NCBI RefSeq assembly: GCF_050920415.1
Contig: NZ_CP169309.1
Origin: Escherichia coli
GTDB lineage: Bacteria > Pseudomonadota > Gammaproteobacteria > Enterobacterales > Enterobacteriaceae
DNA: 64,000 nucleotides
Direction: 5' to 3' (one strand)
In this document: one piece after another, positions 23,714 through 45,887 of the stretch
How positions within the stretch are numbered: the stretch's first letter is position 1
Layout of the letters: each line of letters opens with the position of its first letter
Translations under genes and position numbers: made by a program
The notes under the pieces: model-generated
Seen by the model: the letters and a program-made list of their open reading frames with translations, nothing else
What the model was told of the DNA's origin: nothing
Databases searched by the model: none

Positions 23714-24016
23714 CTACAGTAACGAACTGCACAATGCGCCTGTATTTCGAGGATGACGCCCAAATACGTTAATCTTCTCGCGAACGCTCTCACTACACAT
23801 TCGCTCTACAATTCGCCAAACAGCCTTTTCAGGTAAAAATTTCGGCGCTAGTGCTGAAATAGCACGCCACATACCCCGACTAAGCGAGCATGCTGTGCTA
23901 CCGAAACTAAAGATGGCGAACGAAATAGACGTGATAAACGCCCAGCACCCAGAGAGAAAAGTTGAGATGCGGTGATAAAGCTTAGTCATGTATTGCTCCT
24001 GTTTTTTGGTTTTCAT
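23714..24016 (-). CDS. hypothetical protein downstream of spanin genes
   Basis: 100-aa ORF-track entry with hydrophobic N-terminal segment; start uncertain. Confidence 0.3.
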   Translation of the reverse strand: MKTKKQEQYMTKLYHRISTFLSGCWAFITSISFAIFSFGSTACSLSRGMWRAISALAPKFLPEKAVWRIVERMCSESVREKINVFGRHPRNTGALCSSLL

Positions 24017-24023
24017 CGCCCGA

Positions 24024-24461
24024 TCATTTCAGGCATTGCGTCCTGATGTATTCCTGCAGGTAGTTAACCTGCGCGGTTATCTTGTCGATTCCACTTCTGA
24101 GACGGTAATAATTGAGTTCAGCATCTGCTGTAAGTCTTGGGCTTTCTCCATCGCCCATGCTGTTGGCTCCGGTCGTTGACTTTGCACAGGTGGCGGCGAC
24201 TTGCAGGCGCTTACGACCAGCAGAAACATCAGCACGGAGACTTTCGATAGTCGCATTAGCATCAGCAAGCTCCTTTGTGTATCTGGCGTCAAGTTCTGCT
24301 ACATCACGTTGACGCTTCTGCATGTCAGCGATTGTGGATGCGGCCTTATCGCGCTGTTCTTTGTAGGCGATGGCGTTATCACGGTAATGATTGACCGCCC
24401 ATGACAGACAGACGACGATGCAGATAATCAGAGCGGAGATAATCGCGGTGACTCTGCTCAT
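24024..24461 (-). CDS. Rz: i-spanin Rz (inner-membrane spanin subunit)
   Basis: 145-aa [34 protein letters not shown]... matches lambda Rz N-terminus, then diverges. Confidence 0.85.
24077..24256 (-). CDS. Rz1: o-spanin Rz1 (outer-membrane lipoprotein) embedded in Rz in another frame
   Basis: ORF 24077..24292; [25 protein letters not shown]... lipobox LVVSAC and Pro-rich segment; start uncertain. Confidence 0.6.
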
Positions 24462-24933
24462 ACCTCAATCTCTCTAACCGTTCCGCCTGCTTCTTTGAAT
24501 TTTGCAATCAGGCTGTCAGCCTTATGCTCGAACTGGCCATAACCAGCGCCCGGCAGTGAAGCCCAGATATTGCTGCAACGGTCGATTGCCTGACGAATAT
24601 CACCGCGATCAATCATCGGCAAAGCGCCACGCTCCTTAATCTGCTGCAATGCCACAGCGTCCTGACTTTTCGGAGAGAAGTCTTTCAGGCCAAGCTGCTT
24701 GCGGTAGGCATCCCACCAACGGGAAAGAAGCTGGTAACGTCCGGCTGCTGTTGATTTGAGTTTGGGGTTTAGCGTGACAAGTTTGCGAGGGTGATGGAGT
24801 AATCAGTGAATAGCCCCCCGCCTACAATGACGTCATAACCATGATTTCTGGTTTTCTGACGTCCGTTATCAGTTCCCTCTGACCACGCCAGCATATCGAG
24901 GAACGCCTTACGTTGATTATTGATTTCCACCAT
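24458..24933 (-). pseudogene. R: endolysin R (lambda-type transglycosylase) with a 1-nt deletion frameshift near 24795
   Basis: From ATG 24933: [46 protein letters not shown] then out of frame to a stop; downstream frame (ORF 24458..24655) resumes HPRKLVTLNPKLKS...ALQQIKERGALPMIDRG...; span 476 nt. Confidence 0.7.
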
Positions 24934-25240
24934 CTTCTACTCCGGCTTTTTTAGCAGCGAAGCGTTTGATAAGCGAACCAATCGAGTCAGTACCGATGTA
25001 GCCGATGAACACGCTCGTTATATAAGCGAGATTGCTACTTAGTCCGGCGAAGTCGAGAAGGTCACGAATGAACCAGGCGATAATGGCGCACATCGTTGCG
25101 TCGATTACTGTTTTTGTAAACGCACCGCCATTATATCTGCCGCGAAGGTACGCCATTGCAAACGCAAGGATTGCCCCGATGCCTTGTTCCTTTGCCGCGA
25201 GAATGGCGGCTAACAGGTCATGTTTTTCTGGCATCTTCAT
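24917..25240 (-). CDS. S: holin/antiholin S (lambda S107/S105)
   Basis: 107-aa [70 protein letters not shown]... essentially lambda S. Confidence 0.93.
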
Positions 25241-25535
25241 GTCTTACCCCCAATAAGGGGATTTGCTCTATTTAATTAGGAATAAGGTCGATTACTGATA
25301 GAACAAATCCAGGCTACTGTGTTTAGTAATCAGATTTGTTCGTGACCGATATGCACGGGCAAAACGGCATGAGGTTGTTAGCGCAACCTCTTGCCACCCG
25401 CTTTCACGAAGCCAGCCATTGAGCTGGTTTTCTTTTATGCAAAGCACACCGCACCGTAGCCACAGCGGATAAGGTGATTATTTTGGTCTGTCTGGTATTT
25501 GGTTTGATGCGCTTTCAGAAAGGTCGTGCTTAAAA

Positions 25536-25568
25536 CGCAAAAAGCCCCGAGCTATTAACTCAGGGCTT
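25536..25568 (-). terminator. tR'-like rho-independent terminator downstream of pR'
   Basis: Minus strand: hairpin GCCCTGAG-loop-CTCGGGGC followed by TTTTTGCGTTTT. Confidence 0.6.
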
Positions 25569-25602
25569 TATTTAACGAGTGCATTTATCCATCGTTGAGT
25601 CA

Positions 25603-25631
25603 AATTTACCCAACTTTATTCAAAAAGTCAA
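25603..25631 (-). promoter_or_regulatory. late promoter pR' (-35 TTGACT, 17-bp spacer, -10 TAAATT) with overlapping qut region
   Basis: Minus strand TTGACTttttgaataaagttgggTAAATT immediately downstream of Q; matches lambda pR' closely as recalled. Confidence 0.7.
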
Positions 25632-25673
25632 TATCATGCCGTTAATATGTTGCCATCCGTGGCAATCATGCTG

Positions 25674-26297
25674 CTAACGTGTGACCGCATTCAAAATGTT
25701 GTCTGCGATTGACTCTTCTTTGTGGCATTGCACCACCAGAGCGTCATACAGCGGCTTAACAGTGCGTGACCAGGTGGGTTGGGTAAGGTTTGGGATTAGC
25801 ATCGTTACAGCGCGATATGCAGCGCTTGCTGGCATTCTTGAATAGCCGACACCTTTGCATCTTCCGCACTCTTTCTCAACAACTCTCCCCCACTGCTCTG
25901 TTTTGGCTATATCAACCGCACGGCCTGTACCGTGGCAATCTCTGCATCTTGCGCCCGGCGTCGCGGCACTACGGCAATAATCAGCATAAGCGAATGTTGC
26001 GAGCACTTGCAGTACCTTTGCCTTAGTATTTCCTTCGAGCTTTGCCACACCCCGGTATTTCCCCGATACCTTGTGTGCAAATTGCATCAGATAGTTGATA
26101 GCCTTTTGTTTGTCGTTCTGGCTGAGTTCGTGCTTACCACAGAATGCAGCCATTCCGAATCCGGCTTGTGATTGCGCCATCCCCATAGCAGCCATCACAT
26201 CAGTACCGGAAAGAGAGTCAGAAGCCGTGGCCCGTGGTGAGTCACTCATCATCGGGCTTTTTGGCGAATGAAATTTAGCTACGCTTTCTAGTCTCAT
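25674..26297 (-). CDS. Q: late antiterminator Q (lambda-type)
   Basis: 207-aa ORF MRLESVAKFHSPKSPMMSDSPRATASDSLSGTDVMAAMGMAQSQAGFGMAAFCGKHELSQNDKQKAINYLMQFAHK... matches lambda Q. Confidence 0.93.
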   Translation of the reverse strand: MRLESVAKFHSPKSPMMSDSPRATASDSLSGTDVMAAMGMAQSQAGFGMAAFCGKHELSQNDKQKAINYLMQFAHKVSGKYRGVAKLEGNTKAKVLQVLATFAYADYCRSAATPGARCRDCHGTGRAVDIAKTEQWGRVVEKECGRCKGVGYSRMPASAAYRAVTMLIPNLTQPTWSRTVKPLYDALVVQCHKEESIADNILNAVTR

Positions 26298-26482
26298 GGC
26301 CTTCCCCTTTTGCCCTGTTTGACCATCAGGACGCCGTTAACTATTACGTGACGCTCGCCTTTGCTGTCTCGGTTGTACTTGAGCACTGTTCCTCTTGCGC
26401 AGGAAAGCATCCTCGCCACTTCGGTCTGATTGCCTCGTGTCTGGATAAGAAGCTCTGGTATCGTTTGAATTGTGGCGTTCAT
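26294..26482 (-). CDS. ninH: NinH-like small DNA-binding protein
   Basis: 62-aa ORF MNATIQTIPELLIQTRGNQTEVARMLSCARGTVLKYNRD... resembles lambda NinH. Confidence 0.7.
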   Translation of the reverse strand: MNATIQTIPELLIQTRGNQTEVARMLSCARGTVLKYNRDSKGERHVIVNGVLMVKQGKRGRP

Positions 26483-26841
26483 ACGTTCTCCAGTTCGGTG
26501 ATTTTTATTCCAAGCCGTCCGCCTGGTACTTTCACACCACGAATTACGCGAATGTCATCGAATTGCTCGTCGTCTTCCGCAAATCCGGCGTGGATAAGGG
26601 AGTCGAGTAAACCCTTCAGGATGTTATCGAGGTCGCGGCGGCGGGAGTCTGGAACGTCTGCGATGACTTTGATGCGGAGTCGTGATTTGGTGAAAATGTC
26701 TAACTTAAGTTGGCGGATGATTTGCTGAACGTCTTTTCGGTATTTCTGGCCTTTATCGCTGATGTAGTATTGACTCCCCCGTCTTCGCCAGTAGGTGTTC
26801 AGCGACGGCGGGTATGGAAGCACAAACTGATATTCGTTCAT
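26479..26841 (-). CDS. rusA: Holliday junction resolvase RusA family
   Basis: 120-aa ORF with LPYPPSLNTYWRRRG...DVPDSRRRDLDNILKGLLDSL matching RusA motifs. Confidence 0.85.
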   Translation of the reverse strand: MNEYQFVLPYPPSLNTYWRRRGSQYYISDKGQKYRKDVQQIIRQLKLDIFTKSRLRIKVIADVPDSRRRDLDNILKGLLDSLIHAGFAEDDEQFDDIRVIRGVKVPGGRLGIKITELENV

Positions 26842-27128
26842 GGCTTAATCTTCCCCTCCTTCAGCAGTATCGCCTGCGTCCTTATCACGCCTTCGAGGTG
26901 GTAAAGTCTGGCGTCTTTGTTGTCGAGAATCCTTGTGCGTCGGTCGATCTCCGCGTGGCAGTCACTACAAGCCCATGCGCCGATCAGGTCGTCAGGTTTC
27001 ATTCCCGTTCCGCAAATTCCAGCCATCCGGTAATGTGCCAGAACTGTAGTTTCAGGATTGCCATTGCATACGCCGTAAATACGTACCTGGCATTCTCTGT
27101 TGCGCGCTTCTTTGCGTAGGTTAGCCAT
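26838..27128 (-). CDS. DUF1364 (YbcO-like) Cys-rich nin-region protein
   Basis: 96-aa ORF MANLRKEARNRECQVRIYGVCNGNPETTVLAHYRMAGICGTG...CSDCHAEIDRR resembling DLP12 YbcO. Confidence 0.7.
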   Translation of the reverse strand: MANLRKEARNRECQVRIYGVCNGNPETTVLAHYRMAGICGTGMKPDDLIGAWACSDCHAEIDRRTRILDNKDARLYHLEGVIRTQAILLKEGKIKP

Positions 27129-27850
27129 TAAGCAGCCTCCCCTGTTACTTTCAGCATTCCGTTATCGAGCAGCTTTCTGGTCAGCCACTGTTGACCACGC
27201 CCGGTGATTTTTGTGGTGAACGATATCTGTATTCCGTGATTTGTGTTGACCGCTGTTTCTTTCACTGTGAAATAGCCGCGATCCATATATTCCTGCATTG
27301 GCACATTGCGCCGGGAACCTGAAGCAATAAGGATTTTGTGATCACGCATCCACGCAAACAGTTTGTTTGGACCAATACCGACAACCTTTGCAAAGTTTCC
27401 AATCAAAATTCCGCTGGCCTCGCCAACGCGATCGGCAAACTCAACTTTAGGTGCGGCAATTGCGAGCTGGTTTTCCAGTTGCATTTTCTGCTCAGCAAGA
27501 TCAGCAGCAAGGCGCAACGCTTCTGGTAGCGTTTTGGGGATATTAACCGCAGTTTCCTCAAGCTCTCGCCAACGGTCAACAAGACGAGCGGTGAATTCCG
27601 GCGACAACTGGGCAACAACGACAATACTGTCTCGCTTACCTTGTTCGCCTTCGAAGACGTAATGCTCGTACTGAACATTGAACCCTAAGTTATTGATTCT
27701 TTCGGAAACCTCAATTTGAGGAAGCCGGATAACACCATTTTTAGCCAGCGTTTCGATGGTACGTTTCACATTGTCTTGACGCTTACCCACCAACTCAGCG
27801 ATTTCAATGCTTGTCATTTTGATAGCATTGCCATTTATTAACTCATTCAT
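27128..27850 (-). CDS. Roi/antirepressor-like DNA-binding protein (Rha-type N-terminus, KilAC-type C-terminus)
   Basis: 240-aa ORF in nin region; assignment by composition and position. Confidence 0.45.
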   Translation of the reverse strand: MNELINGNAIKMTSIEIAELVGKRQDNVKRTIETLAKNGVIRLPQIEVSERINNLGFNVQYEHYVFEGEQGKRDSIVVVAQLSPEFTARLVDRWRELEETAVNIPKTLPEALRLAADLAEQKMQLENQLAIAAPKVEFADRVGEASGILIGNFAKVVGIGPNKLFAWMRDHKILIASGSRRNVPMQEYMDRGYFTVKETAVNTNHGIQISFTTKITGRGQQWLTRKLLDNGMLKVTGEAA

Positions 27851-37635: not shown

Positions 37636-38343
37636 ATGGATTTGAATAAATTCGATGAGCCATTCAGCCCTGAAGATATCGAATGGCGAATACAGCAAAG
37701 CGGTAAAACACGCGATGGCAAAGTGTGGGCTATGGTGCTGGCTTATGTCACGAACCGGGCAATCATGAAACGCCTGGACGATGTTTGCGGCAAAGCAGGA
37801 TGGCGCAATGAATACCGCGATATTCCCAACAACGGCGGCGTTGAATGCGGCATATCAATAAAGATTGATTCCGAATGGGTAACCAAATGGGATGCTGCTG
37901 AAAACACGCAGGTAGAAGCCGTCAAAGGTGGTCGTTCCGGTGCAATGAAGCGCGCTGCCGTTCAGTGGGGAATCGGTCGGTATCTGTATAACCTTGAGGA
38001 AGGTTTCGCACAAACATCTCCCGATAAAAAGCAGGGGTGGCACAGGGCAAAACTGAAGGATGGAACAGGATTTTACTGGCTCCCTCCATCGCTGCCGGGA
38101 TGGGCAATCCCAGCATCAGATAACAAACCATCACCAGAAAATACCAACCAGAAATCTCCATCGGTTGACTGCGAACAAATCCTGAAAGACTTCAGCGATT
38201 ATGCATCAACAGAAACTGACAAGAAAAAACTCATCGAGCGTTATCAGCGTGACTGGCAATTAATGGCTGGCAACGAGGAGGCGCAGGCTAAATGCGTTCA
38301 GGTAATGAACATCAGAGTTAACGAACTAAAACAGGCGGCATAA
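37636..38343 (+). CDS. erf: Erf-like single-strand annealing recombinase
   Basis: 235-aa ORF; C-terminus ...ETDKKKLIERYQRDWQLMAGNEEAQAKCVQVMNIRVNELKQAA resembles P22 Erf C-terminus. Confidence 0.75.
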   Translation: MDLNKFDEPFSPEDIEWRIQQSGKTRDGKVWAMVLAYVTNRAIMKRLDDVCGKAGWRNEYRDIPNNGGVECGISIKIDSEWVTKWDAAENTQVEAVKGGRSGAMKRAAVQWGIGRYLYNLEEGFAQTSPDKKQGWHRAKLKDGTGFYWLPPSLPGWAIPASDNKPSPENTNQKSPSVDCEQILKDFSDYASTETDKKKLIERYQRDWQLMAGNEEAQAKCVQVMNIRVNELKQAA

Positions 38344-44469: not shown

Positions 44470-44542
44470 TGATTTTATTTTGACTGATAGTGACCTGTTC
44501 GTTGCAACAAATTGATAAGCAATGCTTTTTTATAATGCCAAC

Positions 44543-44557
44543 TTAGTATAAAAAAGC
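44543..44557. other. attL core (lambda att common core, int-proximal junction) with lambda P-prime arm at 44470-44542
   Basis: TTAGTATAAAAAAGC identical to the 5123-5137 copy; adjacent sequence reads as lambda attP P-prime arm. Confidence 0.88.
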
Positions 44558-44603
44558 AGGCTTCAACGGATTCATTTTTCTATTTCATAGCCCGGAGCAA
44601 CCT

Positions 44604-45887
44604 GTGAATACATTTTCAGTTTCCCGTCTGGCGCTGGCATTGGCTTTTGGCGTGACGCTGACCGCCTGTAGCTCAACACCACCCGATCAACGTCCTTCTG
44701 ATCAAACCGCGCCTGGTACCTCTTCTCGCCCGATTCTGTCGGCAAAAGAAGCGCAGAATTTCGATGCTCAACACTATTTTGCGTCCCTGACGCCGGGCGC
44801 AGCATCATGGAATCCATCACCGATTACTCTGCCTGCACAACCTGACTTTGTTGTCGGCCCGGCGGGTACTCCGGGTGTAACGCATACCACGATTCAGGCG
44901 GCGGTAGATGCGGCAATTATCAAGCGCACCAACAAGCGCCAGTATATTGCCGTGATGCCTGGTGAATATCAGGGAACGGTGTATGTCCCTGCCGCTCCGG
45001 GTGGAATTACTCTGTACGGTACAGGTGAAAAACCGATTGATGTGAAGATTGGGCTTTCCCTTGATGGGGGCATGAGCCCTGCCGACTGGCGTCACGACGT
45101 CAACCCGCGCGGCAAATATATGCCAGGTAAACCAGCGTGGTATATGTACGATAGCTGCCAGAGCAAACGCAGCGACAGTATCGGCGTTCTCTGCTCTGCG
45201 GTCTTCTGGTCACAAAACAATGGCCTGCAACTGCAAAACCTGACCATCGAAAACACGCTGGGTGATAGCGTAGATGCGGGTAACCATCCGGCGGTGGCAC
45301 TGCGTACTGATGGCGACAAAGTGCAGATCAATAACGTCAACATTCTCGGTCGTCAGAATACATTCTTTGTCACCAACAGTGGTGTGCAAAACCGTCTGGA
45401 AACCAACCGTCAGCCGCGTACTCTGGTGACCAACAGTTACATTGAAGGGGATGTGGATATCGTTTCTGGTCGCGGCGCAGTGGTGTTCGATAATACCGAA
45501 TTCCGCGTGGTGAACTCACGTACTCAGCAAGAAGCGTATGTGTTTGCACCGGCTACGCTGTCTAACATCTATTACGGTTTCCTCGCCGTAAACAGCCGTT
45601 TCAATGCTTCCGGTGATGGCGTGGCGCAACTGGGCCGCTCGCTGGATGTTGATGCCAATACCAACGGTCAGGTGGTGATCCGTGATAGCGCCATCAACGA
45701 AGGTTTTAACACGGCTAAACCGTGGGCCGATGCGGTGATTTCCAATCGTCCGTTTGCGGGTAATACTGGCAACGTTGATGATAACGACGAAGTACAGCGT
45801 AATCTGAATGACACTAACTACAACCGCATGTGGGAATACAATAACCGCGGCGTGGGTAGCAAAGTGGTTGCAGAGGCGAAGAAGTAA
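44604..45887 (+). CDS. ybhC: outer-membrane lipoprotein YbhC (pectinesterase-like)
   Basis: 427-aa ORF MNTFSVSRLALALAFGVTLTACSSTPPDQRPSDQTAPG... with lipobox LTAC. Confidence 0.93.
   Translation: MNTFSVSRLALALAFGVTLTACSSTPPDQRPSDQTAPGTSSRPILSAKEAQNFDAQHYFASLTPGAASWNPSPITLPAQPDFVVGPAGTPGVTHTTIQAAVDAAIIKRTNKRQYIAVMPGEYQGTVYVPAAPGGITLYGTGEKPIDVKIGLSLDGGMSPADWRHDVNPRGKYMPGKPAWYMYDSCQSKRSDSIGVLCSAVFWSQNNGLQLQNLTIENTLGDSVDAGNHPAVALRTDGDKVQINNVNILGRQNTFFVTNSGVQNRLETNRQPRTLVTNSYIEGDVDIVSGRGAVVFDNTEFRVVNSRTQQEAYVFAPATLSNIYYGFLAVNSRFNASGDGVAQLGRSLDVDANTNGQVVIRDSAINEGFNTAKPWADAVISNRPFAGNTGNVDDNDEVQRNLNDTNYNRMWEYNNRGVGSKVVAEAKK

Follow-up and report, generated by a model that had tools for sequence, protein, structure and literature searches.

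A probable short-layout Q-pR'-tR' late switch of the P22/HK022/HK97 type in a P22-like Escherichia coli prophage

INTRODUCTION

Lambda Q and the gene 23 protein (gp23) of phage P22 are reported to be very similar and mutually substitutable (PMC8022706), and short Q-regulated late RNAs have been reported in P22, 21, 82 and phi80, as in lambda (PMC7547250). For P22, record BK000583 annotates a promoter ('P late or P R''), a qut site, the RNA 5' nucleotide at 37887 and a terminator (37917-37945, equivalent to +31..+59) with the label 't late or t R'; antiterminated by gene 23 protein action to allow full late transcription'; this annotation is itself inferential, the entry being a TPA_inf record. 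The records of HK544, HK022 and HK97 annotate the promoter and the qut site at most and leave the terminator unannotated, with the HK544 record listing a 'lambda PR' with 2bp mismatch' and a 'Qut site with 2bp mismatch'. In phage Emek, the same hairpin as the one described below is annotated as a rho-independent terminator.

Here we analyzed a 64,000-nucleotide stretch of Escherichia coli DNA (RefSeq assembly GCF_050920415.1, contig NZ_CP169309.1), referred to as the window, and focused on positions 25241-25673, which are exactly the 433 bp of the minus strand that separate the stop codon of Q from the start codon of S. The presence of a short-terminator late control region in this interval was confirmed, and the locus is very probably the late switch of a P22-like prophage with a lambda-family Q, arranged in the short layout that P22, HK022, HK97 and many further lambdoid phages have.

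RESULTS

Elements of the late control region

The elements of the region are all read from the minus strand (Table 1). The sole amino acid change between the Q of the window and lambda Q is L135Q. A promoter scan of 24000-27000 found pR' (25603..25631) as the only minus-strand promoter-like site. Alignment with lambda revealed two substitutions in the pR' spacer, A to T at -28 and A to G at -18; both recur in HK544 (the 'lambda PR'/Qut with 2bp mismatch' of its record), and the P22 spacer is identical. The transcript start was set at seven bases past the -10 hexamer, which agrees with the RNA 5' nucleotide annotated in P22. The same rule places lambda +1 at 44587 and the end of the lambda tR' U-run at +193, consistent with the length of about 190 nt of lambda 6S RNA.

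Past the -10 hexamer, the minus strand reads TGACTC, AACGATGG and then AAAGCCCTGAGTTAATAGCTCGGGGCTTTTT at 25569-25539. The mismatches to lambda within +1..+23 are confined to +9, +11, +15 and +17, leaving AACGAT intact. A scan of IMG/VR for the pR' sequence gave at least 120 loci, and among those listed the AACGAT element deviates by point changes in only 3, with nine more reading AAGAAT. The distal leader (25241-25411) holds a long hairpin at 25395-25366 and an S-proximal hairpin just before the S start, and over the 41 aligned bases at the start of S, a single position departs from lambda S. The features of a Q-lambda-type late cassette, namely the Q gene, pR' with its predicted Q-binding element, the candidate pause element and a predicted intrinsic terminator, are all present.

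Table 1. Positions of the predicted late-switch elements and flanking genes in the window
Feature	Position	Strand	Basis or remark
Q late-gene antiterminator	25674..26297	-	207-aa ORF; 206/207 aa identical to lambda Q
pR' -35 hexamer TTGACT	25631-25626	-	promoter scan
pR' spacer, 17 bp, with predicted Q-binding element	25625-25609	-	lambda homology
pR' -10 hexamer TAAATT	25608-25603	-	promoter scan
Predicted late transcript start (+1)	25596	-	homology
Lambda-homologous +1..+23	25574..25596	-	homology
Putative sigma-dependent pause element AACGAT, -10-like	25596-25591	-	identical to lambda
Expected pause, +16/+17	25581/25580	-	established lambda pR' behavior; PMC9388147
Block without lambda homology, 162 bp, holding the terminator	25412..25573	-	7-base-word BLAST, alignment
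Predicted intrinsic terminator tR' (P22/HK022 type)	25539..25569	-	hairpin scan and folding
Lambda-homologous distal leader	25241..25411	-	98.2% identical to lambda 45015-45185
S holin/antiholin, 107 aa, lambda-type, first late-operon gene	24917..25240	-	ORF

A predicted hairpin terminator close to pR'

The hairpin scan identified a stem of 13 pairs, 6 of them G-C, at 25569-25541, followed by a T-run that extends to 25539. Its G-C core stem (GCCCUGAG/CUCGGGGC) lies at 25566-25544 (+31..+53), with three further A-U pairs possible, while the U-run at 25543-25539 (+54..+58) consists of five U and is followed by GCG. The locus thereby shows the complete signature of the short tR' of the P22/HK022 type: GCCCUGAG-loop-CUCGGGGC, a U-run, GCG and a start at about +31. 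The hairpin energy is -15.2 kcal/mol for the core and -19.1 kcal/mol with the A-U extension, compared with -26.3 kcal/mol for the lambda tR' hairpin. Given the five-U run before GCG and a hairpin weaker than lambda tR', termination could be less efficient here. The RNA from +1 to +62 has a folding energy of -23.3 kcal/mol (z = -4.5), a stability reached by none of the 200 shuffles (0/200); the hairpin observation is well beyond chance.

These results bear out the sequence-only reading, which had placed a terminator about 55 nt past the pR' start and expected a '6S-type' transcript far shorter than that of lambda. With +1 at 25596, the hairpin spans +28..+56 and the U-run ends at +58, so that the distance of about 55 nt was correct, and the predicted Q-independent RNA would be about 58 nt long against about 193 nt in lambda. 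The comparison thus supports a Q-pR'-tR' arrangement with a very promoter-proximal predicted terminator and a much shorter transcript.

Conservation of the short leader among phages

Sequence comparison revealed that the whole 433-bp interval is 99.1% identical in HK544 and 96.8-97.7% identical in HK140, ECP1, Gally, HK106, HK542, mEp234, mEpX1, HK022 and Sf101. The central 164-bp block is 93.9% identical in HK97 and about 77% identical in P22 and many P22-like Salmonella phages. A multiple alignment ranging from the window to P22 shows essentially no variation between pR' and about +75, the loop excepted. The core stem of tR' is unchanged across the 18 distinct variants aligned, P22 included, and zero pairs of the terminator or of the small 5' hairpin of the leader RNA changed on both sides over these variants. 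Because the terminator stem is invariant, covariation neither supports nor tests its structure; the small 5' hairpin shows uncompensated changes among the variants.

The same conservation bears on an additional role for the RNA, one compatible with the late switch. The RNA of about 58 nt might also be a trans-acting sRNA, constitutive in lysogens and StxS-like, which we consider unlikely; it is equally doubtful that such an sRNA would be common to both the P22-like and the HK022/HK97-like prophages found in E. coli, Shigella and Salmonella, with transcripts of the host or of competing phages as its targets. Such a role would fit the expected constitutive activity of pR', the precedent of StxS for pR'-tR' RNAs acting via Hfq (PMC7547250), and the A/U-rich linker with a terminator hairpin and U-tail, as in Hfq-class sRNAs. 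It would fit as well the near invariance of +1..+58 from E. coli phages to P22, the next 120 nt being much less conserved, but this conservation is inseparable from that of the Q/pR'/pause/terminator module, and the changes in the 5' hairpin are uncompensated. The RNA also matches no Rfam family: a permissive search of 24800-26400 against Rfam 15 returned a noise-level snoU85 hit only (15 bits, where the gathering score is 41), located on the opposite strand, and a literature search for a function of the short pR'-tR' RNA of the P22/HK022 type yielded the StxS precedent only. Moreover, the free exchange of the sequence in lambda, ES18 and the locus L128 speaks for a requirement for terminator function alone.

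Comparison with lambda

Comparison of the window with lambda revealed two conserved flanks around a replaced center. The segment from the end of Q through +23 (25673-25574) is 94% identical to lambda 44510-44609, and the segment 25411-25241 is 98.2% identical to lambda 45015-45185. Between them, lambda 44610-45014 (405 bp, comprising the 6S body, tR' and downstream sequence) is replaced by 162 bp (25573-25412). A BLAST search with 7-base words found no significant similarity of this block to the lambda 405 bp (+24..+428), the best chance match being 29 bp at 79%. The distance from the Q stop to the S start is 433 bp in the window vs 676 bp in lambda, and +1 lies 356 nt from the S ATG, vs 599 nt in lambda. 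Lambda may have further terminators between tR' and S, which play no part in the present argument.

As the sequence-only reading had noted, pR' (TTGACT/TAAATT) and the sequence behind it are lambda-like: the -35, the -10 and the pause element are identical, and TGACTCAACGATGG matches lambda exactly. On alignment the two regions proved neither colinear nor of equal length, so that the outcome it had named as refuting did not arise. Two of its boundaries had to be moved. It had placed the divergence from lambda after the hairpin, while the alignment sets its onset at +24, before the hairpin, and the hairpin is therefore part of the non-lambda block; it had lambda homology rejoining about 130 bp before S, and the homology in fact resumes 171 bp before S (25411), position 130 upstream of S being the first mismatch inside a 98%-identical block and nothing more. 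Its description of the region as 'compacted' suggests a shortening of the lambda arrangement, but the alignment points to replacement by a non-homologous block, and it is the short form that is widespread. The difference from lambda is, on this alignment, a module swap from +24, in which the 162-bp block opens with its own predicted terminator. Homology to the 6S body and the tR' hairpin was not found, since homology ends at +23, and the short RNA would be analogous to lambda 6S RNA in function, not homologous to it.

The shorter distance, with a region 243 bp shorter than in lambda between flanks of 94-98% identity, could suggest that the leader arose from a lambda-like one by an internal deletion, which brought a terminator near pR'. 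We regard this origin as highly improbable. Even with 7-base words, no homology is detectable between the 162-bp block and the 405 bp that it replaces, and the hairpin sequence is unlike that of lambda tR'. The short block is, in addition, an old and widespread allele of E. coli, Shigella, Salmonella and Klebsiella phages, and the lambda block is itself mosaic, with sub-blocks found separately in other phages. The absence of residual homology in the 7-base-word BLAST leads us to reject the deletion origin.

Frequency of the short and lambda forms

The short block was found in 99 phage records, near full length in 89, and spans phages of E. coli, Shigella, Salmonella and Klebsiella; the lambda block is near full length in 21 phage records, mostly lambda and its derivatives. 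Among 5,426 complete E. coli genomes, 260 carry the short block and 217 the lambda block, counted at a coverage of at least 80% of the query. The ten best E. coli genome matches to the lambda block are all 100% identical to lambda and are mostly laboratory strains (J53, K-12 derivatives, C41(DE3) and C43(DE3)). The IMG/VR loci listed (at least 120) comprise 67 of the short type, 43 of the lambda type, 9 with an inserted gene and 1 with another hairpin (L128). The short form is at least as frequent as the lambda long form, and the genome, phage and IMG/VR counts together indicate that lambda is therefore not the typical form. The textbook case is atypical, with a 193-nt 6S RNA within a 405-bp mosaic block, while in most natural relatives with the same Q the RNA would end at about +58.

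The lambda long block (L001 44614-44999) has a composite make-up of its own. Its query sub-blocks 1-168, 174-255, 245-317 and 323-386 occur separately, and were seen apart in HK446/mEp506, Klebsiella phages, P7/D6 and HK75.

In nine lambda-type loci (L054, L037, L061, L084, L093, L099, L108, L121 and L125), the pR' leader is interrupted at +3 by an inserted ORF of about 690 bp that encodes an HNH/AP2-type endonuclease. Through the insertion the pause element is re-created with the sequence AAGAAT, and lambda 6S continues past the insert with +4..+195, which puts the endonuclease gene between the Q-loading site and tR'.

The terminator as a module boundary

Two hybrid loci (L022 and L085) carry the short terminator followed at +64 by lambda post-tR' sequence (lambda +199 onward), so that the short hairpin fills exactly the slot of lambda tR'. 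Among the 18 aligned distinct variants, at least 5 unrelated downstream continuations start directly past the U-run, and the terminator is therefore the end of the Q-pR' module. In HK633, about 880 bp separate the terminator from the holin gene, and in Hafnia phage Meifeng the same hairpin lies between a 208-aa ORF and two tRNA genes preceding the holin gene. In ES18, whose Q is of another type, a different strong hairpin is joined within the stem to P22 downstream sequence, and L128 has yet another strong hairpin at +27..+55, both in the same slot. From these alignments, the short terminator emerges as a recurrent mosaic junction. The sharp boundary at the terminator, to which tRNA genes, other leaders or lambda post-tR' sequence are joined, is an aid to prophage annotation.

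It is highly improbable that the hairpin mainly serves the opposite strand, as a bidirectional terminator against plus-strand transcription into Q, or has its main role in RNA stability or processing: the stem is preceded by an A-run, giving GCCCCGAG...CTCAGGGCTTTATTT on the plus strand, and a second plus-strand terminator-type hairpin lies at 25408-25431, but the plus-strand T-run is interrupted (TTTATTT), the scan called no plus-strand terminator there, no plus-strand promoter or gene feeding the hairpin was found, and both the fixed distance from pR' +1 and the exchange with other terminators in the slot fit a role on the late strand.

The same hairpin, AAGCCCTGAGTTAATAGCTCGGGGCTTTTT, was observed as an identical sequence of 30-36 nt with unrelated flanks at three places: far downstream in a lambda-type leader (L055, +276..+306), before the tRNA genes of Meifeng (L008, 1201-1236) and after the endolysin gene of the Guernseyvirinae phage AH01 of Pantoea (L009, 1201-1230). 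Its distribution suggests that it behaves like a portable terminator cassette.

Neighboring features

Downstream of tR', the long hairpin GGCAAGAGGTTG-CGCTAA-CAACCTCATGCC, followed by GTTTTG (25360-25395, minus strand), is common to the window and lambda. P22 keeps its stem, with one T-A to C-G exchange and without the U-run, and in locus L089 the loop is inverted. A weak second terminator is one possible role for this hairpin, and an RNA processing or structural element is another.

Read on the plus strand, antisense to the late RNA, the window also contains the hairpin GCCAGC-CATTGA-GCTGGT followed by TTTTCTTTT (25408-25439), which is not in lambda. Compensatory changes preserve its stem (25408-25431) in P22, ES18 and L084 (CCAGC/GCTGG, CCCGC/GCGGG and CCCAG/CTGGG), and its A/T-run is invariant in the six phages aligned. 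No promoter or gene that this hairpin would terminate was found.

A 51-aa ORF at 25292-25447 (minus strand), listed as 'hypothetical protein' in HK140, ECP1, Sf101 and mEp234, overlaps the conserved RNA hairpins. This ORF is unlikely to be a gene, because it has a GTG start and indels disrupt the frame in HK97 and P22.

In the endolysin gene R (24458-24933, minus strand), a one-base deletion relative to lambda R was observed at 24795-24796 (TACTCC-ATCACC), which splits the gene into ORFs 24769-24933 and 24458-24655. It reflects either a pseudogene, and with it a lysis-defective prophage, or a sequencing error.

The prophage, examined at 5000-29000 and 41178-64000, is P22-like, with virion genes closest to those of the E. 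coli podoviruses IME10, HZ41 and APC_JM3.2. Upstream of Q lies a mosaic nin region with a NinH-like ORF and a RusA-family ORF (so annotated in matching genomes), and ORF 27128-27850 appears antirepressor-like from its sequence alone. Among the complete E. coli genomes compared, none matches this region exactly, with a best value of 97.4% over 3.2 kb.

DISCUSSION

Proposed operation of the switch

In the late-switch reading, pR' would fire constitutively, and RNA polymerase still bearing sigma-70 would pause at about +16/+17 as sigma re-binds the -10-like AACGAT at +1..+6. Without Q, the polymerase would resume and terminate at +28..+58, giving an RNA of about 58 nt and leaving the lysis and virion genes silent. 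Once Q has accumulated from the early-right operon, it would bind the element between -35 and -10 and join the paused complex; the substitutions at -28 and -18 in this spacer count against taking such binding for granted. Q and NusA would then form a nozzle on the RNA-exit channel, with the RNA 5' end threaded through by about +16. The RNA 5' end is expected to pass into, through and beyond the Q nozzle as the RNA grows from 12 to 15-16 nt (PMC9388147). Threading would precede synthesis of the 5' arm of the terminator (+28), so that no hairpin would form and the polymerase would read through into S, R, Rz and the structural genes. With threading complete about 12 nt before the 5' arm of the terminator, the short distance between promoter and terminator is in full agreement with Q action.

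Termination and Q-dependent read-through at 25241-25673 are best taken as predictions from sequence and annotation. The promoter scan found no further minus-strand promoter between tR' and S, and S, R, Rz and the P22-like virion genes would depend on read-through. The frameshift in R counts against an intact switch, since this could be a defective prophage, and selection on its switch may have ceased.

Comparison with described systems

The predicted RNA resembles StxS of Shiga-toxin phages in being a short constitutive RNA from an antiterminated late promoter, ended at tR' in lysogeny (PMC7547250). StxS differs in belonging to another Q type, in its sequence and in its length of 74 nt, and it is RNase E-processed from a longer precursor. 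An Hfq-dependent function has been demonstrated for StxS (PMC7547250), whereas the RNA described here is predicted from sequence.

With lambda, the locus shares Q (206/207), the -35, the -10, the pause element, the segment +1..+23, the 171 bp that precede S, and S, and the regulatory logic would be the same. Lambda differs in its terminated RNA of about 193 nt and its larger hairpin (-26.3 kcal/mol), and the window in the two substitutions of the Q-binding spacer.

In P22 (gene 23 - Plate/PR' - t late/tR' - gene 13), the same Q-family protein, pR' hexamers, spacer and initial transcribed sequence are found. The stem of the P22 terminator is identical and lies at the same offset, being annotated at +31..+59 where the core here is +31..+53 and the U-run reaches +58; its loop is one nucleotide longer (TTTAACCG vs TTAATAG in the window). 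From about +75 to the holin gene, the P22 leader is much less similar (77% over the 164-bp block) and leads to gene 13 instead of a lambda-type S.

In HK544, HK140, HK022, mEp234 and Sf101, the Q-S intergenic region is colinear with that of the window and leads to a lambda-type S holin, which HK97 also has. These six phages differ by point changes only, one of which turns a U-G wobble of the stem into a U-U mismatch in HK022. The short layout was already annotated in P22 and sequenced in HK022 and HK97, and the finding is therefore real but ordinary: this form of the late switch is an already known and widespread arrangement, not a new one.
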